The notes under the pieces were generated by a model that ran no database searches, had not been told where the DNA came from, and was given only the letters and a program-made list of their open reading frames with translations. From NCBI GenBank assembly GCA_045600465.1, contig JAZRXY010000028.1, positions 55,577 through 119,576 of the forward strand: a DNA stretch of 64,000 nucleotides, given 5' to 3'. Shown here piece by piece: positions 3,540 through 61,849 of this stretch (positions are counted from its first letter, which is position 1; every line of letters starts with the position of its first letter). Origin of the DNA: Bacilli bacterium (GTDB lineage: Bacteria; Bacillota_I; Bacilli_A; RFN20; UBA1709). The translations under genes were made by a program, and so were the position numbers.

Positions 3540-3731
3540 AAGCGTAACCCTCTTTGCCCGGTGATATCACGAGCCCCACAAAAACGCCCAAGTTGTTTTA
3601 TTCTAGCCCCATTATACCTAGATAAAAAAATAATGCAAGACTAAATTTTATTTAATTTTATTATATATATTAAAACAGTTGAAAAAAAGGGCAAAAAATC
3701 ATACAATATTATGGACACGTGAGGTGATTTT

Positions 3732-4451
3732 ATGGGACGTGCATTTGAAGTTAGAAAGAAAGCTATGGCACAAACAGCCGCAGCAAAAACAAAAGTATAT
3801 TCAAAATATGGTAAGGAAGTTTATCTTGCTGCTAAAAGTGGGGTTCCTGATCCAGAAATGAACATGACATTAAAGCATGTTGTTGAAAAAGCAAAGAAGG
3901 CTCAAGTTCCTGCTGATGTTATTAAAAGAGCTATTGATAAAGCTAAATCTGGCGCAGGAGAAAACTATGCAGCTAAAACATATGAAGGATTTGGTCCTGG
4001 AGCATCTACAATCATTGTTGAATGTTTAACCGACAATGATAATAGAGCTATTAGTGATGTCAGAGCATGTTTCACAAAATGTCACTGTAAATTAGGTGTT
4101 ACTGGCTGCGTTTCACATAACTATGACCATGTAGCATTAATTGTATTAAAAGGCATGAGTGAAGATGAAGTGCTAGAAGCTTGTATGAATGCTAATGTTG
4201 ATATTAATAACATTGAAAGCGAAGAGGATGAAGTAAGTATCATTGCTGAGCCAAGCAATCTAAATGCCATTAGAGAAGCTTTGGAAAAAGCAAAACCTGG
4301 ATTGGATATTCTAACTGATGAAGTTACTTATCTTCCTGCTAACAATGAATATGTAACGTTGGAAGGGGAAGAAAAAGAATATTTTGAAAGACTAATCAAC
4401 ATGCTTAATGAAGTTGATGATGTCCAAGATGTCTATCATAACGTTGAATAA
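3732..4451 (+). CDS. YebC/PmpR family DNA-binding transcriptional regulator
   Basis: 239 aa. MGRAFEVRKKAMAQTAAAKTKVYSKYGKE and YEGFGPGASTIIVECLTDN are family-typical. TTGAAA-17-TACAAT promoter upstream. Confidence 0.9.
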   Translation: MGRAFEVRKKAMAQTAAAKTKVYSKYGKEVYLAAKSGVPDPEMNMTLKHVVEKAKKAQVPADVIKRAIDKAKSGAGENYAAKTYEGFGPGASTIIVECLTDNDNRAISDVRACFTKCHCKLGVTGCVSHNYDHVALIVLKGMSEDEVLEACMNANVDINNIESEEDEVSIIAEPSNLNAIREALEKAKPGLDILTDEVTYLPANNEYVTLEGEEKEYFERLINMLNEVDDVQDVYHNVE

Positions 4452-4660: not shown

Positions 4661-5197
4661 ATGAGTAAATATTTAGGAACACAAACAGAAAAGAACTTAC
4701 AAACAGCATTTGCAGGAGAATCACAAGCAAGAAATAAATATACATATTTTGCTTCAGTCGCAAAAAAGGAAGGCTATGAACAAATCGCTGCCATCTTTGA
4801 AGAAACAGCAAATAACGAAAAGGAACATGCTAAGTTATGGTTCAAAGAATTAGAAGAACTAGGAACAACTTCAGAGAACCTAAAAGCAGCAGCAGATGGC
4901 GAAAATTATGAATGGACAGATATGTATGATGGTTTTGCAAAAACAGCTGAAGAAGAAGGGTTCCCAGCATTAGCAGCAAAGTTTAGAGGGGTCGCTGCAA
5001 TTGAAAAACGTCACGAAGAAAGATACAGAGCTTTATTAAACAATGTTGAAACAAAGCAAGTATTTGAAAAGAGTGAAGTTAAAGTTTGGGAATGCAGAAA
5101 CTGTGGACATATCGTAGTTGGAACAAAAGCTCCAGCAGCATGCCCAGTATGTGCACATCCACAATCATACTTCGAAGTTCATAAAGAAAACTTCTAA
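4661..5197 (+). CDS. rbr: rubrerythrin
   Basis: Ferritin-like diiron N-domain ([13 protein letters not shown]) plus a C-terminal rubredoxin-like CRNCG...CPVCAHP. Confidence 0.9.
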
Positions 5198-5243: not shown

Positions 5244-6029
5244 TTATAGAGGGATTACAACATCGTTTGCATCATCGAATTTCTTCAATAATGATTCGAC
5301 TGTTAATTTTTGTTTTTCCTTACCTGAGACATCAAGTAAGATTTTACCATTATGTAACATAACAAGACGATTTCCATATTTAATAGCATCTTTCATGTTG
5401 TGAGTAATCATAATTGTTGTTAGATTGTTTTCAGTGACTATCTTTTCTGTTAAATCTAGGACTACTTTAGCAGTTTTAGGATCTAGAGCAGCAGTGTGTT
5501 CATCAAGTAATAAAACTTTAGGTTTATCCATTGTTGCCATTAAAAGTGTTAGAGCTTGTCTTTGACCACCTGATAATAAACCAACTTTTTGAGTAAGTCT
5601 ATTTTCTAGGCCTAGGTTTAATGATGATAATTCTTTTTTAAACATTTCTTCATGTTCTTTTTTAAAACCCCAATGGAGAGTTCTTTTTTTAGTTCTTCTT
5701 AAGGCTAACTCCATGTTTTCATTAATAGACATTCCAGGAGCTGTTCCCATTTTTGGGTCTTGAAAAACACGTCCGATGTATTTGGCTCTTTGATATTCCT
5801 TTAATTTAGAAACATCCTCACCATCAATGATGATACTGCCATCATCAGGAGGGAAGACACCACCAATAATGTTAAGTAATGTAGATTTTCCACTACCATT
5901 ACCACCGATAACAGTAATAAATTCGCCATCTTTAATATCTAGGCTTACACCCGCTAGAGCGATTCTTAAGTCTTCAGCGTTACCAGTAAGGTTAAATGAT
6001 TTTTTAACGTTTTTAATCTGAAGCATCAT
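5244..6029 (-). CDS. ABC transporter ATP-binding protein (partner of the COG2984/COG4120 importer)
   Basis: Walker A GGNGSGKST, signature LSGGQRQALTL, Walker B LLLDEHTAALD. Confidence 0.85.
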   Translation of the reverse strand: MMLQIKNVKKSFNLTGNAEDLRIALAGVSLDIKDGEFITVIGGNGSGKSTLLNIIGGVFPPDDGSIIIDGEDVSKLKEYQRAKYIGRVFQDPKMGTAPGMSINENMELALRRTKKRTLHWGFKKEHEEMFKKELSSLNLGLENRLTQKVGLLSGGQRQALTLLMATMDKPKVLLLDEHTAALDPKTAKVVLDLTEKIVTENNLTTIMITHNMKDAIKYGNRLVMLHNGKILLDVSGKEKQKLTVESLLKKFDDANDVVIPL

Positions 6030-6930
6030 TAACCGCTCCTTTCTTTTTGCTTGTTAATAGCTTTTTAATTAACGGGCCTGCAAGAACAATAGTAATTAAG
6101 ACTGCGTATAGTAATTTCTTTAGGTAATGAGGCAAACCTAATTGAATTGCAACTGCAACTATTAAGTAGTAGACAATTGAACCTAAAGCGACAGAGATAA
6201 GATTGTTCTTGAATGATCTTTTCCCAAATATTGCTTCACCGATGATAATAGCACTTAATCCAATAACTAGAGCGCCAACACCCATGTTATTTTCTGCATT
6301 TAATTCGTTTTGTGCAAATAAGCAACCACCTAATGCAATTAATGCATTAGAGATAGCTAGACCTACAATAATGCATGAATTTGTATTAATGCCTTGAGCT
6401 CTAGCCATGTTTGAATTCATGCCAGTAGCTCTAATTGACATACCAACTTCAGTACCAAAGAAGTAGTAAAGAATTAGGATGACAATAACAACTATGATTA
6501 AGGAAGTAATAATACTATTAACATATGAAGAAGAGAAAATATTTAAAATATTGAAAATAGTAGGATTGCTTCCAACATAGACAACGTTTGAATAACTACT
6601 TAGTTTTGGCCAACCCATAATCATCATGTTGATTGAGAATAGACCAGTGGTAGTAATAATACCAGAAAGTAGTTTAGGAATTCTAAGTTTTGTATGTAGA
6701 ACTCCTGTAACAATACCTGCTACAAAGCCAGCAGCAACTGCAGCAATAGTAGCAATAATAGGATTGACTCCCATTGCGATTAAAGCGACTGATAAAGCAC
6801 CACCAAGAGTGAAACTTCCTTCAGCACCTAAATCAGCAAAATCTAGTAAGCGATAGGAAATAAATATTCCTAAGGCTAGTAAAGCATATGGCAATCCAAT
6901 AGCTAATGTATCAACTAACGCCCACAACAT
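6013..6930 (-). CDS. ABC transporter permease (COG4120 type)
   Basis: 305-aa polytopic membrane protein, overlapping the ATPase gene by 17 nt. Confidence 0.8.
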   Translation of the reverse strand: MLWALVDTLAIGLPYALLALGIFISYRLLDFADLGAEGSFTLGGALSVALIAMGVNPIIATIAAVAAGFVAGIVTGVLHTKLRIPKLLSGIITTTGLFSINMMIMGWPKLSSYSNVVYVGSNPTIFNILNIFSSSYVNSIITSLIIVVIVILILYYFFGTEVGMSIRATGMNSNMARAQGINTNSCIIVGLAISNALIALGGCLFAQNELNAENNMGVGALVIGLSAIIIGEAIFGKRSFKNNLISVALGSIVYYLIVAVAIQLGLPHYLKKLLYAVLITIVLAGPLIKKLLTSKKKGAVNDASD

Positions 6931-6933
6931 AGA

Positions 6934-7923
6934 CTAATCACCATACTTTGTTATAACTTCATTAGGTATTACTAGTCCAATTTTATTGCAAGCTTCTTGG
7001 TTGATAGCTAATGAATATTCATCTGCTGATAAGTAACCTACAGGGAATGAAGCTGTATCTTTACCATTTAAGATTTCAGCTGCCATTTTACCAGTTAGAA
7101 CACCTAAGTTATAGTAATCAATACCTAGAGCAAATGTTCCACCAGATTCGACCATTCCTGCCTCACCAGCACTTACTGGAATTTTTGATTCATAAGCGAT
7201 GTTTGTTACAGCTGGCATATTAGAAGCTAATAGGTTATCAGTTGGGATGTAAATGACATCAGCACCATCACTGATTAGTTTTCTAACTGACATTGCAATA
7301 TCAGAGACATCACTAACTGTTTGAACAAGTGTATTTAATCCTTGTTTTGCAGCTTCTTTTTCTGCTAAATCTGATTGAACCTTTGAGTTTGACTCACTAA
7401 TCGTGTATAGAATGCCAACAGTATCAGCACTTGGTAAGACTTCTTTTAGTAAATCAATTTGTAATTCTACTGGGTTCATATCACTAGTTCCTGTGATATT
7501 TCCACCAGGGTTTGCATTAGAATTAACAAGTTTAGAATCTGCAGGGTCTGTAACTGCTGTGAATAGAATCTTAGTTTTGCTATTTTGTTGTTGAGCTGCA
7601 GCTTGAAGCGCAGTAGCAGCAGGAGTAGCAATACCTAATACTAAATCATTATCTCTAACTATAGTTTTTGCTAGAGCAGATAGAGTAGCAGAATCTCCCT
7701 CAGGGTTATCGTAAGATATTGTAATATTTACGCCATCTTCAAACCCGCCTTGTTTTAATCCTTCGATGAAACCATCATTTGCACTGTTTAGTGCACTAAA
7801 TGTTGCGTACTGAATAATACCAACTTTTGCTTTCTGATTGCTAGTTTCTCCACAACCAACTAAACTAGTGGTCATTAAACAGGATAATAAACTAACAATT
7901 CCTAGTTTTGCGAATAATTTCAT
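6934..7923 (-). CDS. ABC transporter substrate-binding lipoprotein (ABC_sub_bind / COG2984 family)
   Basis: Signal plus lipobox LVGCGE, then KVGIIQYATFSALNSANDGFIEGLK, typical of this family. Confidence 0.8.
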   Translation of the reverse strand: MKLFAKLGIVSLLSCLMTTSLVGCGETSNQKAKVGIIQYATFSALNSANDGFIEGLKQGGFEDGVNITISYDNPEGDSATLSALAKTIVRDNDLVLGIATPAATALQAAAQQQNSKTKILFTAVTDPADSKLVNSNANPGGNITGTSDMNPVELQIDLLKEVLPSADTVGILYTISESNSKVQSDLAEKEAAKQGLNTLVQTVSDVSDIAMSVRKLISDGADVIYIPTDNLLASNMPAVTNIAYESKIPVSAGEAGMVESGGTFALGIDYYNLGVLTGKMAAEILNGKDTASFPVGYLSADEYSLAINQEACNKIGLVIPNEVITKYGD

Positions 7924-7955
7924 AATAATCCCCCTTATTTGTAAATCATTCTTTC

Positions 7956-7989
7956 AATAAAAAGTGTTATCACAATTAAGTAATAACAC
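7956..7989 (-). terminator. leader terminator (attenuator) upstream of the COG2984 importer operon
   Basis: On the minus-strand RNA, GUGUUAUUAC-uuaauu-GUGAUAACAC forms a 10-bp stem with one G.U pair and is followed by UUUUUAUU. Its 5' arm can instead pair with an upstream segment. Confidence 0.5.
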
Positions 7990-8068
7990 AGGGAAGTAAA
8001 TATATTTGTTTCTACGTTATTACTTTAATTAGCTTTATCGTAATAACATTTTAGGTTTTACTTTTACA

Positions 8069-8164
8069 TTAGCAAACACCCAAGTCTGCAATCACGATAC
8101 ATCTTGGAAAATAAAAGTAAAAGTAATAAAAGAAAGAATTGCATAATTTCTTAATAAGTTTCAT
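8069..8164 (-). CDS. candidate 31-aa leader peptide MKLIKKLCNSFFYYFYFYFPRCIVIADLGVC
   Basis: AGGAGG SD (8178-8173) lies 8 nt before the ATG at 8164. Nine consecutive Phe/Tyr codons (8134-8108). Too short to appear in the ORF track. Confidence 0.45.
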   Translation of the reverse strand: MKLIKKLCNSFFYYFYFYFPRCIVIADLGVC

Positions 8165-8236
8165 ATGTAGTTCCTCCTTTTTACGTGATACCTCTATTAT
8201 ATGTAATATATATATCAAAATAAATAGTTTTTACAA

Positions 8237-8250
8237 TGTAAGCACTTTCA
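8237..8250. promoter_or_regulatory. cre-like box TGTAAGCACTTTCA
   Basis: 13 of 14 positions match the CcpA cre consensus TGWAANCGNTNWCA (central CG is CA). It lies upstream of the leader ORF. Confidence 0.4.
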
Positions 8251-8253
8251 ACA

Positions 8254-9057
8254 TTATAGTTTTGTAAATTTCATGCTTAGAAACATTGGGATCTCACTTT
8301 TAGCCAGTTCAATTGCTTCACTTTTGATGCCTTTTTGTTCTTTTTTGTTACTGGCAAGTTCTTGTATTTCTTCTAAATATAAGCCATATTTACTTGCGCT
8401 ATTGATGTAGGCATTAATAGGGCGGTGATAGTGATAAGTGATTTCTGAATTAGCTTTATTGCTAGGCTTAGATAATATTTCAATAGTTTCACTATTTAAG
8501 TATTTCCACATAATGCGTTCTTGGCGATGTTTTTCATCATTAAACTGCCAATTAGAGTATTGAGGAATTCTAAAGCAAGGATGCATCATTACGATGATTA
8601 AAGATCCACCTTTTTTAAGTAGTTTAGAGACGGCTTTAAACAAAGGTGATAAAGGATTAATGTTTTGAATTGCTAAAACGACAGTAGCGTAATCATAATA
8701 TTCACTTTTTAAATCAAGCTTTAGATTACCATTTTGAGACAAAAGTTTAGTAACATCAGCAGTAATGTAACTTGGTTCATTATCATTATTAAGTTTCCTT
8801 TTTTTTGCCATTCTTACTAGTGCTGGTGCAATGTCAATTCCTGTTACTTTTGCACCTAGATTAGATAGTTGACGACATAAAACTCCTTGACCACAAGCTA
8901 GATCAATCACAGTTTTACCAGCAATCTTTTTATCTCCTAATGATTTTATTAAACTAGGGAATATTACATTTTGATGATATTCACTTCCGGTTTCTCCCAC
9001 TAAAGAATCATACCATTTAGCAACCTTATTCCATGCAAGGCTTTCATTTTTGTCCAT
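8254..9057 (-). CDS. class I SAM-dependent methyltransferase
   Basis: Motif I VIDLACGQG; 267 aa. Confidence 0.8.
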   Translation of the reverse strand: MDKNESLAWNKVAKWYDSLVGETGSEYHQNVIFPSLIKSLGDKKIAGKTVIDLACGQGVLCRQLSNLGAKVTGIDIAPALVRMAKKRKLNNDNEPSYITADVTKLLSQNGNLKLDLKSEYYDYATVVLAIQNINPLSPLFKAVSKLLKKGGSLIIVMMHPCFRIPQYSNWQFNDEKHRQERIMWKYLNSETIEILSKPSNKANSEITYHYHRPINAYINSASKYGLYLEEIQELASNKKEQKGIKSEAIELAKSEIPMFLSMKFTKL

Positions 9058-9154
9058 TTTACCACCTCAAACGCTTAATTATTATACAATAATTAAATCA
9101 AAACTACCATATTATTCATAGATGTGTTAAAATATTTCAGCGGGGCGTGATACT

Positions 9155-10843
9155 ATGAAATTAAAAAATAATTTTTTTAACACATTCAGAGAAGATGTAA
9201 AAGATGAAGATTCAGTTAGTGGTAATTTACTTACTAGAGCTGGCATGATCAAAAAGACTAGTGCTGGTGTTTACATGTACTTACCGCTAGGATATCGCGT
9301 CTATAATAACATTTGTAATATTGTAAGAGATGAAATGGTTAAGGCAGGGAGCCAAGAGGTTTTAATGCCAGCTTTAATTAGTGAAGATGTTTACGTTTCA
9401 AGTGGTAGAAGAGAAGGTTTTGGCCACGATATGTTTACATTTCACGATAGATTTGATAAGCCATATGCATTAGGGCCAACTCATGAAGAGTTGTTTGTTA
9501 ATGCTGCAAAAATGTATGTTAAATCATATAAAGATTTACCGTTTAACATTTTCCAAATTCAAATAAAATTCAGAGATGAACCTCGACCAAGATATGGTCT
9601 TATTAGAGTAAGAGAGTTTGCAATGAAAGATGCTTATTCATTTGATGCAACTATGGAAGGCTTAGATGAGTCTTACAAGAAGATGTTTGATGCTTATAAG
9701 AACACCTTTGATAGAGTAGGACTAAACTATGCAATTGTTAGAGCAGATACTGGAGTTATGGGTGGACTACTAAGTGAAGAGTTCCAAGCAATTTCTCCAA
9801 TTGGAGAAGATACAATTGTTCAATGTGATAGTTGTGATTTATCAGCCAACTTAGAAATTGCTGAAGTAGTTGAAATAGTAGATCAAAAAGAAGCACATAA
9901 AGAAAAAGAACTAGTTAATACACCAAATGCTGGAAGTATTGAAGAAGTTAGTGCTTTCTTAAATGAAAAAGCTGATAAGTTTGTTAAGACGATGATTTAT
10001 ATGATTGATAACAAACCATACGCTATTTGTTTACCTGGAAATAGAGAAGTCAATGAAAACAAAGTTAAAAAACTTGTTGGTGGCTTAGAAATTGAATTAG
10101 CTGATTTTGATACAGTAAGCAAAGTAACAAATGCTAAAGTTGGTTTTGCGGGTCCTATTGGATTAAGTATTCCAGTAATTATGGATAGAAATATTAAACA
10201 CATGGCTAACTTTATTGTCGGCGCTAACAAATCTGATTATCACTATAAAAATGTTAATATCGAAGATTTCAAAGCTGATTATGTTGGCGATATCACTTGC
10301 ATTAAAGAGGGAGATATCTGCCCAAAATGTGGTGGAAAAATTGTCTTTAAAAAAGGTATCGAAGTTGGTAATACTTTCAAACTAGGAACTAAATATTCAA
10401 AAGCACTAGGACTTCAATATCTAAATAACGAAGGTAAATTACAAGATGTTATCATGGGAAGTTATGGCATTGGTATTGGTAGAACAATGGCTGCAGCTGT
10501 TGAACAATTCCATGATGAAAAAGGTATTATTTGGCCAATGTCAATTGCACCTTTCAAAGTAGCAATTGTTATTATCAACATTAAAGATGAAGAACAAGTT
10601 AAGATTGCTAATAAGATTTATGATGATTTAATGGCTAAAGGAATTGAACCACTTCTAGATGATAGAGATGAAAGAGCAGGAGTTAAGTTCAATGATATGG
10701 ACTTAGTAGGAATTCCTCTAAGAATTACTGTAGGTAAGGGCATTAAAGAAGGCGTAGTTGAATTCAAACATCGTAGCGATAGTGAAGCAACTAATATCAA
10801 GATTGAAGAAATTGTAAATCTTGTTGAACAAGAAACAAAATAA
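9155..10843 (+). CDS. proS: proline--tRNA ligase (bacterial type with an inserted editing domain)
   Basis: 562 aa with class II motifs and the conserved N-terminus (RAGMIKKTSAGVYMYLPLG, FRDEPRPRYGLIRVREF). Confidence 0.95.
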   Translation: MKLKNNFFNTFREDVKDEDSVSGNLLTRAGMIKKTSAGVYMYLPLGYRVYNNICNIVRDEMVKAGSQEVLMPALISEDVYVSSGRREGFGHDMFTFHDRFDKPYALGPTHEELFVNAAKMYVKSYKDLPFNIFQIQIKFRDEPRPRYGLIRVREFAMKDAYSFDATMEGLDESYKKMFDAYKNTFDRVGLNYAIVRADTGVMGGLLSEEFQAISPIGEDTIVQCDSCDLSANLEIAEVVEIVDQKEAHKEKELVNTPNAGSIEEVSAFLNEKADKFVKTMIYMIDNKPYAICLPGNREVNENKVKKLVGGLEIELADFDTVSKVTNAKVGFAGPIGLSIPVIMDRNIKHMANFIVGANKSDYHYKNVNIEDFKADYVGDITCIKEGDICPKCGGKIVFKKGIEVGNTFKLGTKYSKALGLQYLNNEGKLQDVIMGSYGIGIGRTMAAAVEQFHDEKGIIWPMSIAPFKVAIVIINIKDEEQVKIANKIYDDLMAKGIEPLLDDRDERAGVKFNDMDLVGIPLRITVGKGIKEGVVEFKHRSDSEATNIKIEEIVNLVEQETK

Positions 10844-54770: not shown

Positions 54771-55859
54771 ATGTTAAAATATCAACACAAGTCAAACACT
54801 TTAGAAAAACTAAGCCAAAATACAAAAAAATCTGGTGTTAGTTTCATTATTTTAGGGATTATTCTAACAATAGTTATGATTCTATCTGCCACAAGAGTTA
54901 TTCAAGGAACTTTCGGCACTAAATTAGCTGAAGTTATTGTATATGCTATTATCGCAATTGGTTTTTCATATCTAATTGGATATTCTGGCTTAGCATCACT
55001 AGGAACAGCAGGTCTAGTTGGAGTTGGCGCATATATATGCGCGATCTTCACTAAAAAAGCTGTTACATTAGGATGGATTGCACATGGATGGTCAATTATC
55101 GTTATTGCAATTGTTGCATTAATTGCAGCGTTAATCATTGGCTTAGTCATTGGTTTTGCTTCCTTACGTATTGAAGGTCTATTCCTTGCAATTGTTACAT
55201 TAGGTCTATCAGAAGTTTTAAACAAAGTATTCATTAACGCTAATACAATTACAGATGGTGTTAACGGATACACTATTCCTTATACATATTTGTTTGGGGA
55301 TATTCAAATAGGAAAACTAGGAATGAATATCACGATGTGCGTAGTTCTAGTTTTAATCCTAATTATTACAAATAACGTTGGTAAATCAGCAACAGGTCGT
55401 GCAATGTTATCAATGAAAAACTCAACATCAGCAGCACAAGCTATGGGTATTAGCTTACTAAAATATAGACTAATGGCTTTCATGCTATCAACAGCATATG
55501 CAGCATTAGCAGGCGTTCTATATATGGCTGTCACAAAATTCACAGTACCAAGCAAATGGAGTTTAGTATTCTCACTAAACATCCTTGCAGCATGTGTATT
55601 CGGTGGATCTCGTAACTTATGGGGCATTATGTTTGGTGCATTCTTGATTTTTGGTCTAGAACCACTATTCTTAGTTAACGTTACATTACTAAGAGATAAC
55701 TCATGGTTACTAAGCGTTATTATTGGTGTTATTCTAATTCTTATCGTTTTGTTCTATCGTGGTGGTGTCATCCAACTATTAAACGATATCAAACGTGGAT
55801 TTATGAAATTAACAAGAAGATGGAGGGCAAAGAAGTATGGCTACGATGAAGAACAATAA
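54771..55859 (+). CDS. branched-chain-amino-acid-type ABC permease (LivM-like)
   Basis: GYSGLASLGTAGLVGVGAY. The ATG at 54771 is preferred over the GTG at 54762. Confidence 0.8.
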   Translation: MLKYQHKSNTLEKLSQNTKKSGVSFIILGIILTIVMILSATRVIQGTFGTKLAEVIVYAIIAIGFSYLIGYSGLASLGTAGLVGVGAYICAIFTKKAVTLGWIAHGWSIIVIAIVALIAALIIGLVIGFASLRIEGLFLAIVTLGLSEVLNKVFINANTITDGVNGYTIPYTYLFGDIQIGKLGMNITMCVVLVLILIITNNVGKSATGRAMLSMKNSTSAAQAMGISLLKYRLMAFMLSTAYAALAGVLYMAVTKFTVPSKWSLVFSLNILAACVFGGSRNLWGIMFGAFLIFGLEPLFLVNVTLLRDNSWLLSVIIGVILILIVLFYRGGVIQLLNDIKRGFMKLTRRWRAKKYGYDEEQ

Positions 55860-61030: not shown

Positions 61031-61849
61031 ATGGCTGTATTTAAATACAAAGGATTAGATTTCAATTATGAAATCCATGGGGAAGGAAAACCATTGCTAA
61101 TACTAAATGGAATTATGATGTCATGTATGTCATGGTATCCTTTACTCCCAAACTTAAAAGAAAATAACAAAGTTATTCTTGTCGATATGCTAAACCAAGG
61201 AAAATCAGCTCATGTTAATTTTGACTTTACTCAAGATTATCAAGTAGAACTAATTAAAGCTTTACTTGATGAACTAGAATTAAAGAAAGTTTCAATTTGC
61301 GGAATTTCTTATGGTGGCGAAGTTGCATTAAGATTTGCGGTTAAACATCAAGAATACATTGAACGCTTAGTATTATCAAATACATTAGCTTATACTAACT
61401 CTTGGTTAGGTGACATTGGTAAAGCATGGAACTTAGTAGCAGCAAGCGGAAATGGTGAAGCTTATTACTACACAACAATTCCTGTTATCTATTCACCAGA
61501 ATTCTACACATCAAGAAGTGAATGGATGGAAAATAGAAGAAAAATTTTAGTACCACTATTTAGTGATCCTAATTTCTACAATGCAATGATTGGTTTAACT
61601 AAGAGTGCTGATGATCACAACGTTTGTGATAAATTAAATACAATTACAGTACCAACATTAATTATAGGCTGTGATCAAGACTATTTAACACCTTTCCCAG
61701 AACAACAATACATTCATGACAATATCAAAGGTTCAAAACTAGTAAGAATTGAACACTCAGGTCATGCTTCAATGTATGAACAACCACTAGTTTGGACATC
61801 GTTAGTTACAGGTTTTGTTAATAGTAAAGATGTTGAATTTAAAATTTAA
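61031..61849 (+). CDS. alpha/beta hydrolase
   Basis: Nucleophile elbow GISYGG and a C-terminal HSGH. Confidence 0.8.
   Translation: MAVFKYKGLDFNYEIHGEGKPLLILNGIMMSCMSWYPLLPNLKENNKVILVDMLNQGKSAHVNFDFTQDYQVELIKALLDELELKKVSICGISYGGEVALRFAVKHQEYIERLVLSNTLAYTNSWLGDIGKAWNLVAASGNGEAYYYTTIPVIYSPEFYTSRSEWMENRRKILVPLFSDPNFYNAMIGLTKSADDHNVCDKLNTITVPTLIIGCDQDYLTPFPEQQYIHDNIKGSKLVRIEHSGHASMYEQPLVWTSLVTGFVNSKDVEFKI

Follow-up and report, generated by a model that had tools for sequence, protein, structure and literature searches.

Architecture of the leader ahead of an ABC importer operon

The 64,000-nt stretch analysed here (positions 55,577 to 119,576 of contig JAZRXY010000028.1, assembly GCA_045600465.1, from a Bacilli bacterium; hereafter the window) carries on its minus strand a three-gene operon for an ATP-binding cassette (ABC) importer. 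Pfam assigns these genes to a lipoprotein substrate-binding protein of family PF04392 (6934-7923, 5e-67), an ABC permease (BPD_transp_2, 6013-6930) and an ABC ATPase (5244-6029). Ahead of them lies a leader with a short aromatic-rich open reading frame (ORF) and a chain of mutually exclusive RNA helices. We read this leader as a ribosome-mediated attenuator that would sense the charging of tRNA-Tyr/tRNA-Phe and control a tyrosine-type importer, and we put the probability of this reading at about 85%.

The leader ORF (8164-8069, minus strand; 31 codons and a stop) encodes MKLIKKLCNSFFYYFYFYFPRCIVIADLGVC. Its ATG at 8164 is preceded, at a distance of 8 nt, by the Shine-Dalgarno (SD) sequence AGGAGG (8178-8173). 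Codons 11-19 (8134-8108) read UUC UUU UAU UAC UUU UAC UUU UAU UUU, that is, FFYYFYFYF, nine Phe/Tyr codons in succession (5 Phe and 4 Tyr). Screening both strands of the window for short SD-preceded ORFs with at least 7 aromatic residues in 10, we found this ORF only. Lowering the threshold to 6/10 added one more, at 61556. This GTG-started ORF (61488-61556, minus strand; VVLKFFFYFPSIHFLMCRILVNR) looks leader-like (FFFYFPS). However, we rejected it as a second leader and took it for a chance occurrence: the coding ORF 61031-61849 spans it on the opposite strand.

Downstream of the codon run, the minus strand carries a series of segments that can pair in alternative ways. CCAAG (segment A, 8107-8103) stands directly 3′ of the run and is invariant in the close-relative alignment A2. 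Segment S0 (UAUCGUGAU-GCA, 8099-8087) occupies codons 22-26 of the ORF. Segment B (CUUGGGUGUUUGCU, 8084-8071) opens with CUUGG(GU) (8084-8078), and its partner is either CCAAG or AGUAAAACCUAA at 8062-8051. Then follow S1 (8049-8036), which contains GUUAUUAC at 8047-8040; S2 (8025-8012), which contains GUAAUAAC at 8023-8016; S3 (CUGUGUUAUUACUU, 7991-7978), with GUGUUAUUAC at 7989-7980; and S4 (GUGAUAACAC, 7973-7964). The U-tract UUUUUAUU (7963-7956) comes directly after S4. S1 may pair with S0 or with S2, S2 with S1 (as an anti-antiterminator) or with S3 (as an antiterminator), while S3 also forms the 5′ arm and S4 the 3′ arm of an intrinsic terminator. An earlier note on this DNA had listed the SD sequence, the ORF, the nine aromatic codons, the U-run and four of these segments (its seg1 and seg2 lie in our S1 and S2), and all of them read in the sequence as it had described. 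The further UUAUUAC copy that it had noticed in the codon run is present too (8129-8123), which allows S2 to pair with the run as well (-8.8 kcal/mol in the window). The near-invariant core GUUAUUAC, whose complement is GUAAUAAC, reads U-UAU-UAC and so contains two Tyr codons.

The intergenic span 8253-7924 measures 330 nt. The earlier note had counted all of it as leader; the length of the span stands, but the transcribed part is probably about 265 nt, counted from a conserved TATAAT at 8201-8196 (minus strand). This candidate -10 box, which would place the transcription start probably near 8189, was not reported by the consensus scan because its -35 element is weak. The same hexamer stands 5-7 nt ahead of UAUCACG in the related loci L001, L004 and L007. 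In the window, UAUCACG (segment S-1, 8190-8184) directly follows the -10 box, and it is kept in L001, L004 and L007. It is complementary to S0 (CGUGAUA) in four of five close relatives, with duplexes of -7.9 to -17.7 kcal/mol (13 bp in L004). UAUCACG may be a clamp favouring termination of an untranslated leader or, alternatively, an operator at the DNA level.

The terminator and its competing helices are conserved

The 10-bp stem at 7989-7964 together with its U-run is the sole terminator-like site in 7700-8500 (1 found, 0.2 expected), in agreement with the terminator that the earlier note had seen in its 3:4 pairing. We also checked how the whole leader folds. The 267-nt leader RNA is more stably folded than 200 of 200 shuffles (z = -3.78). 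In its minimum-free-energy (MFE) structure, S0 (8099-8087) pairs with S1 (8048-8036) and B (8084-8071) pairs with 8062-8051, giving one long hairpin that encloses the stop codon and has B as its apical part. The earlier note had missed this S0:S1 hairpin and had worried that the aromatic codons, about 60 nt upstream of seg1, were too distant for a textbook coupling. CCAAG (8107-8103), S0, CUUGG(GU) and 8062-8051 fill this gap; the concern falls away because S0, B, 8062-8051 and S1 form a long hairpin around the stop codon, as part of the proposed register-shifting relay.

The competing S2:S3 duplex of the window comprises 14 bp (-14.0 kcal/mol). Since MAFFT misaligned the S1-S2 region in an alignment of five close leaders, we compared the helices by anchored extraction. 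The S0:S1 duplex is retained in 5/5 close relatives (-10.9 to -15.5 kcal/mol), and for the full set of S0:S1, S1:S2, S2:S3 and S3:S4 the energies range from -10 to -22 kcal/mol in five relatives. With the duplexes aligned by eye, A-U to G-C changes are seen among the close relatives at S2:S3 pairs outside the terminator stem.

In a wider comparison, 23 loci share four cores in the order GUUAUUAC/GUAAUAAC/GUUAUUAC/GUAAUAAC, and we asked whether the positions flanking these cores pair. Flank pairing was 0.61-0.77, against 0.41-0.52 when partners were permuted among the 23 loci without regard to kinship, and for every helix the observed value was unmatched in 2000 of 2000 permutations. The S1:S2 flanks, for instance, were 0.64 paired versus 0.41 permuted, while a non-cognate control combination gave no signal (0.50 versus 0.50). 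Inner flank positions carry 4-6 pair types. These comparisons show that the three downstream helices (S1:S2, S2:S3 and S3:S4) covary. The 1:2 / 2:3 / 3:4 attenuator logic that the earlier note had proposed is thereby supported: its three alternative helices are conserved, and the covariation it had suggested looking for in orthologous leaders exists in the flanks of the 23 loci and not in the control.

The aromatic leader ORF recurs ahead of homologous transporters

A genome scan with the single binding protein as query gave no match; an alignment query over GTDB genomes gave 80 loci. Among 78 distinct 400-nt regions upstream of the homologous transporter genes, 35 have on the sense strand a short SD-preceded ORF in which 6 or more residues out of 10 are aromatic. 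The same criterion found 0/78 on the antisense strand, and 0.2 would be expected from shuffles. The carriers include Acholeplasmatales and Bacilli metagenome-assembled genomes (MAGs), Anaerofustis, Haploplasma, Streptococcus salivarius and one Chloroflexi MAG. An SD-like motif is present in nearly all of the family leaders, and most of the leader-bearing loci we examined show a hairpin and a U-run 20-45 nt ahead of the transporter gene. In roughly 24 of 40 family leaders, a chain search placed S0 at the 3′ end of the ORF or at its stop codon.

The nearest relatives of the host are MAGs labelled Bacilli, Acholeplasmatales or ′Eubacteriales′, and the closest homologue of the binding protein, P0003, is 67% identical. 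Contigs with a 55-58% identical binding protein are syntenic with the window (proS, methyltransferase, leader, transporter, rubrerythrin, yebC). Homologous leader ORFs lie in the syntenic L001, L004, L007 and L093; the leader ORFs of the syntenic relatives include MKKTLINMLHAFFYYFYYFPRFVVITSLGF, MIKTLLNKFKSSFYYYFYYYFPRSVVITNLGVC and MFKTLLNKIKSSFYYYFYYYFPSGIVITTLGVC, with stretches such as MKKTLINMLHAFFYYFYYFPRF.. and MIKTLLNKFKSSFYYYFYYYFPRS... More distant family members are ..YYYYYYYYFPSESRN (a MAG labelled Staphylococcaceae), MFNKNLQTQVYYYYYYQGDIMI (Haploplasma modicum), MKRRFFYYYYYYFSPAVECCAANI (Anaerofustis) and MLNKATHLGNLKAFYYFSFFR (Streptococcus salivarius and relatives). Both the ORF and its Phe/Tyr run are thus kept in relatives, and the aromatic run is the sole part of the peptide conserved across the family; the rest diverges.

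One more element is conserved next to the run. CCAAG directly follows the run in 16 of 42 unique leaders, and in 16/16 of these CUUGG occurs 21-34 nt downstream. The reading frame of CCAAG varies (UUU-CCA-AGN or UUC-CAA-G), so that the conservation is one of RNA and not of peptide. This also explains that Pro is followed only by Arg or Ser, which have AGN codons. We therefore rejected ′FPR/FPS′ as a case of peptide-level conservation in favour of an RNA motif, CCAAG, pairing with CUUGG.

A DNA-pattern scan of metagenomes returned one true locus, L091, with a leader identical to that of L007. A second candidate, L092, was discarded as a GC-rich chance match.

The streptococcal version differs in several features. 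The leader region of S. salivarius KSS6 (L083, 2090-2400), with the leader MLNKATHLGNLKAFYYFSFFR at 2156-2384 (about 190.6 kb in NZ_CP145863.1), has a near-consensus promoter (TTGACA, 17 nt, TAAACT) and GC-richer hairpins without the GUUAUUAC motif. At the position of Glu254, a pocket residue of the window binding protein discussed below, the streptococcal proteins have Asp (S. salivarius KSS6) or Ser (S. henryi and S. orisratti), and so the substrate of the streptococcal version may differ.

The transporter has the pocket signature of a tyrosine binder

We then compared the binding protein with characterized relatives. Against the TrpX equivalog model (NCBIfam NF041285) it scores 273 bits. 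As the cutoff is 390, it is a paralogue of the tryptophan binder and not TrpX itself. Among solved structures, its best match is the tyrosine-bound CD0873 of C. difficile (6HNI, 2.3e-57), followed by 3LFT and 3LKV. CD0873, 3LFT and 3LKV bind Tyr, Trp and Phe, respectively; Glu263 of CD0873 makes a hydrogen bond to the tyrosine hydroxyl and is replaced by Ala in the other two proteins, whereas Tyr279, which keeps tryptophan out, has Gln as its counterpart in the Trp binder (PMC6816091). By differential scanning fluorimetry, CD0873 bound tyrosine only (PMC6816091).

In HMMER alignments, Glu254 and Tyr270 of the window protein align with Glu263 and Tyr279 of CD0873; the corresponding residues are Ala and Gln in 3LFT and Ala and Tyr in 3LKV. 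Tyr270 also stands against Gln284 in SP1069, at the position where Gln makes room for the indole ring. Since Glu254 and Tyr270 match the CD0873 signature, the transporter of the window is predicted to be tyrosine-type. The window protein thus shares the Glu and Tyr specificity residues of CD0873 (PDB 6HNI), although sequence identity is moderate, and tyrosine is its predicted ligand. Another homologue, P0002 (552 aa), scores 540 bits at only 49% identity and may be a duplicated or fused binding protein.

Regulatory codons follow the pocket residue

Counting the codons in the runs of 37 unique leaders ahead of Glu-type binding proteins, we obtained 185 Tyr, 96 Phe and 0 Trp codons. This count supports a leader system directed mainly at tyrosine. 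The earlier note had assigned a Phe/Tyr specificity to the window leader; the aromatic run stands, and with the CD0873-like pocket the assignment is sharpened to mainly tyrosine.

Two loci with tandem binding-protein paralogues allow both pocket types to be compared side by side. In L066 (Leptolinea, the Chloroflexi MAG), each paralogue has its own leader (1088-1245 and 2349-2506). The Ala-type gene is preceded by MGMQNIHSFFFFFFFATPHKVVQREFFA, with an FFFFFFF run (..SFFFFFFFATPH..), and the Glu-type gene by MQKTNRSYYFYGYYYGKSPHSVWREVFA, with a Tyr-rich run (..SYYFYGYYYGKSPH..). Read by eye, the two leaders show compensating differences between a segment of the ORF and the terminator loop region: UUGUGCAG goes with CUGCACAA in the leader of the Ala-type gene, and CGGUGUG with CACACCG in that of the Glu-type gene. 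The second leader (2349-2506) has no recognisable SD sequence. In L046, tandem T-boxes take the place of the leaders (2160-2420 and 3658-3921); the specifier UUC precedes the Ala-type gene and UAC the Glu-type gene. The UUC specifier is followed by C, not by the usual purine. L067 and L077, which are Glu-type and have no leader ORF, carry T-boxes with the specifier UAC. All four of these T-boxes have a UGGU bulge, which fits the A73 discriminator of tRNA-Tyr and tRNA-Phe. As T-boxes or codon runs match the pocket, the gene family is probably regulated by the charging of the cognate aromatic tRNA, and at the level of sequence these comparisons show that codon identity is linked to the pocket residue of the transporter.

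A model for attenuation by the translating ribosome

Modelling the leader at equilibrium with a ribosome placed at successive positions, we found a terminator probability of 0.72 without a ribosome, 0.0-0.03 when codons 17-19 occupied the A site, and again 0.7-0.8 from codon 21 to the stop. Over 40 leaders, the 5′ arm of the terminator was more sequestered with a ribosome on the run than with one at the stop codon (Wilcoxon p = 2e-7); 11 of the 40 differed by more than 0.2, and none differed to that extent in the opposite direction.

These positions suggest the following scheme. A ribosome would load at the strong SD sequence and translate the 31-codon leader. When Tyr/Phe are ample, it would pass the nine aromatic codons, S0 and B and reach the stop codon. 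S0 and B would be covered or unwound while S1 is made, S1 would pair with the emerging S2, and S3 would be free for S4, with termination at the U-tract (7963-7956) ahead of the transporter genes. A shortage of charged tRNA-Tyr or tRNA-Phe would instead make the ribosome stall in the run. A ribosome stalled at the last codons of the run would mask segment A (CCAAG) and leave S0 and B bare, so that the long hairpin of S0/B with 8062-8051/S1 could form around the stop codon. S2, left without a partner, would then capture S3 in the 14-bp antiterminator, S4 would remain unpaired, and transcription would read through into the genes for the binding protein, the permease and the ATPase. More tentatively, in an untranslated leader UAUCACG and/or the CCAAG:CUUGG pairing might hold S0 and B, and S1:S2 with S3:S4 would make termination the default state.

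Several observations weigh against ribosome-mediated attenuation, or against parts of the scheme. A large share of the homologous loci, roughly 35 of 80, have no leader ORF and no T-box. The terminator of the window is AT-rich (-11 kcal/mol), and its run has five Phe codons, though the pocket signature predicts tyrosine; the leader may have as many Phe as Tyr codons through dual sensing, a broader range of transport, or because the structure requires a U-rich tract. The permutation tests ignore the kinship of the loci, which inflates them, and the non-cognate control has the same bias. In the equilibrium model, ribosome position made a difference in the window and in a few other loci, but the terminator probability of many family members is independent of it, and a pre-terminator simulation of the window gave 0.98 in all states, with no discrimination. 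All these folding tests treat a kinetic process as if it were at equilibrium. With models that discriminate poorly at many loci and a flat pre-terminator test of the window, the order of folding is inferred, and so is the response to amino-acid supply.

Other explanations of the leader

The simplest alternative holds that the leader is a product of chance, in which a T-rich stretch reads as Phe/Tyr codons, the hairpin is a leftover terminator of the upstream gene and the repeats are incidental. The genome is indeed AT-rich (GC 0.323), and the window has the second aromatic-rich pseudo-ORF at 61556. But that ORF is antisense inside a gene, while the leader ORF and its run are kept in frame and with an SD sequence in relatives whose transporters are only 40-58% identical, and codon identity tracks the pocket residue. 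The earlier note had itself cautioned that T-rich low complexity might mimic aromatic codons. This caveat is refuted by the strand and shuffle control (35 sense, 0 antisense, 0.2 shuffled), since the ORF occurs sense-only in relatives and is unique at threshold 7 in the window. Judged from the comparative data, chance is effectively refuted, and we leave it next to no probability. Alternatively, the small ORF could encode a functional hydrophobic peptide (a membrane peptide, a toxin or a signalling pro-peptide) co-expressed with the transporter, with hairpins unrelated to translation. Its product has a basic N-terminus and a hydrophobic remainder, and close relatives have ..FPRxVVIT.LGVC in common. 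However, outside this close group the aromatic run alone is kept, with no agreement in length or in the rest of the sequence, and the conserved residues have explanations in the RNA: P-R/P-S follows from CCAAG, which is also found in the frame UUC-CAA-G, and the VVIT codons are segment S0. We also found no Pfam or NCBIfam match for the peptide, and a functional peptide seems to us very improbable.

Two further possibilities accept that the leader is regulatory but change the signal or the reader. In a TnaC-like arrest, free tyrosine would stall the ribosome on an aromatic-rich, Pro-containing nascent peptide, and abundant tyrosine would induce the importer. Behind the run there is often a Pro codon, tyrosine fermentation is possible in some carriers, and CD0873 feeds p-cresol production in C. 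difficile. Yet many leaders lack Pro, the Pro codon is accounted for by CCAAG, and the peptide around the run varies. Moreover, orthologous genes stand under Tyr or Phe T-boxes, and T-boxes respond to uncharged tRNA, i.e. to starvation, and an intrinsic terminator with an antiterminator suffices for the classical mechanism. We rate a TnaC-like arrest just as improbable as a functional peptide. Finally, an RNA-binding protein or a tRNA might read the four-fold GUUAUUAC/GUAAUAAC motifs (in a TRAP-, PyrR- or T-box-like manner), the ORF being secondary. Even between distant lineages the 8-nt cores hardly vary, which is unusual (98-99% of their core pairs are canonical), and GUAAUA is complementary to the Tyr codons UAU-UAC. 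Invariance of the cores is expected, though, because each segment must pair with two partners. L066, L022 and the streptococci keep the aromatic ORF without the motif, their hairpin sequences being quite different; no T-box or other Rfam family matches the leader, and comparing the window with related loci we found no regulator gene conserved beside the operon. Such a protein or tRNA reader is accordingly unlikely, and we allow it only a small probability.

Relation to known attenuators and T-boxes

Searching 7000-9200 with Rfam cmscan at E up to 10, we found no T-box and no leader family, although the T-box model (RF00230) does detect the T-boxes of L046, L067 and L077. At the gathering score, the Rfam leader families (Phe_leader and the leu/phe leader among them) gave no match in 40 loci, including the leader-bearing streptococcal loci L050 and L083. 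Four leader peptides had no Pfam match, and the window peptide had no NCBIfam match. A literature search, which was thin on subscription journals, turned up no tyrosine-rich leader peptide and no attenuator of the PF04392 transporter family. The device is of a known type; its Tyr/Phe specificity and its transporter target are new.

Leader-peptide attenuation is a textbook mechanism, represented in enterobacteria by trpL, hisL (helices A:B, C:D and E:F), pheL/pheA and pheM/pheST; hisL, ilvL and pheL have a Pro codon behind the run. The leaders described here share with them a short ORF, preceded by an SD sequence, in which codons for the regulating amino acid stand in tandem, and a chain of mutually exclusive helices that ends in an intrinsic terminator and would be shifted to the antiterminator register by a stalled ribosome. 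The multi-hairpin his attenuator offers a comparable register-shifting relay. Unlike in the enterobacterial systems, Tyr predominates among the regulatory codons, with Phe mixed in; the leaders occur in Bacillota and one Chloroflexi MAG; and the target is an uptake system and not a biosynthetic operon or a tRNA synthetase. Rfam cmscan detects no sequence or covariance-model similarity to them, and in most members the segment that the terminating ribosome would mask (S0) lies at the 3′ end or stop codon of the ORF.

Among Firmicutes leaders, that of leu/phe in Lactococcus has an Rfam family. Firmicutes His leaders occur in the B. cereus group, Peptostreptococcaceae and Erysipelotrichales (PMC9413887, PMC2965389), and a Leu-rich attenuator peptide precedes ilv-leu of S. 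aureus (PMC5794164). The window leader is the same kind of device in the same phylum, in a niche usually held by T-boxes; it differs in its Tyr/Phe codons, its PF04392 importer target, the absence of an Rfam match, its wide phyletic spread and the conserved four-segment GUUAUUAC/GUAAUAAC core in 23 loci. The closest aromatic example we found is the aroR leader of C. glutamicum, which lies upstream of aroF, contains Phe-Tyr-Phe and responds to Phe and not to Tyr, according to the account of Neshat et al. 2014 given in PMC11802643. In that account, aroR likewise joins a mixed Phe/Tyr leader peptide to attenuation of an aromatic amino-acid gene, but it has three aromatic codons only, controls a biosynthetic 3-deoxy-D-arabino-heptulosonate 7-phosphate synthase and belongs to Actinobacteria.

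T-boxes on the same gene family give the nearest functional parallel. The earlier note had mentioned, correctly, a link between COG2984 transporters and Trp T-boxes in streptococci: the PF04392/COG2984 transporter trpXYZ of S. suis is under a Trp T-box (PMC9382623). Such leaders and ours have in common the gene family, the charging of the cognate tRNA as signal and a terminator/antiterminator output. The proposed sensor is different, being a translating ribosome on a codon run and not a Stem I specifier with a T-box bulge that binds tRNA.

Genomic neighbourhood

A gene for an S-adenosylmethionine-dependent methyltransferase (8254-9057, minus) lies directly upstream of the leader on the same strand, an arrangement common to L004-L007. 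The prolyl-tRNA synthetase gene proS (9155-10843, plus) is divergent, with the same orientation in L001, L004 and L007, where it is in view. L001 and L004 have an alanine dehydrogenase-like gene beside proS. Downstream of the operon, rubrerythrin (4661-5197, plus) and YebC/TACO1 (3732-4451, plus) genes are conserved in L004-L007. In L032, a Bacillota MAG, the transporter operon is closely followed, at 3852-4054, by a tRNA gene and a Gut-1 RNA (RF01706).

Implications for the transporter family

The window leader is, in our estimate rather probably, one member of a widespread and apparently undescribed family of Tyr/Phe leader attenuators. This family would replace T-boxes on PF04392 importers across Bacillota and in at least one Chloroflexi MAG; its codons would covary with the pocket (Tyr with Glu, Phe with Ala), and most members would share a relay of five to six segments built from GUUAUUAC and its complement. 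We found no description of a tyrosine-directed leader, and attenuators of uptake systems are few. Tyr/Phe T-boxes and ribosome-read codon runs on one transporter family would amount to non-orthologous replacement of the sensor of tRNA charging. The hypothesis is directly testable in cultured carriers, namely S. salivarius, Haploplasma modicum (ATCC 29102, L036) and Anaerofustis stercorihominis. The transporter family, which includes relatives of the C. difficile colonisation factor CD0873, is poorly annotated (′tryptophan/tyrosine transport system′ in KEGG), and the leader gives independent, sequence-readable support for its assignment as a Tyr/Phe importer. If the reading is true, the sequence of a leader would predict the substrate of the transporter behind it.

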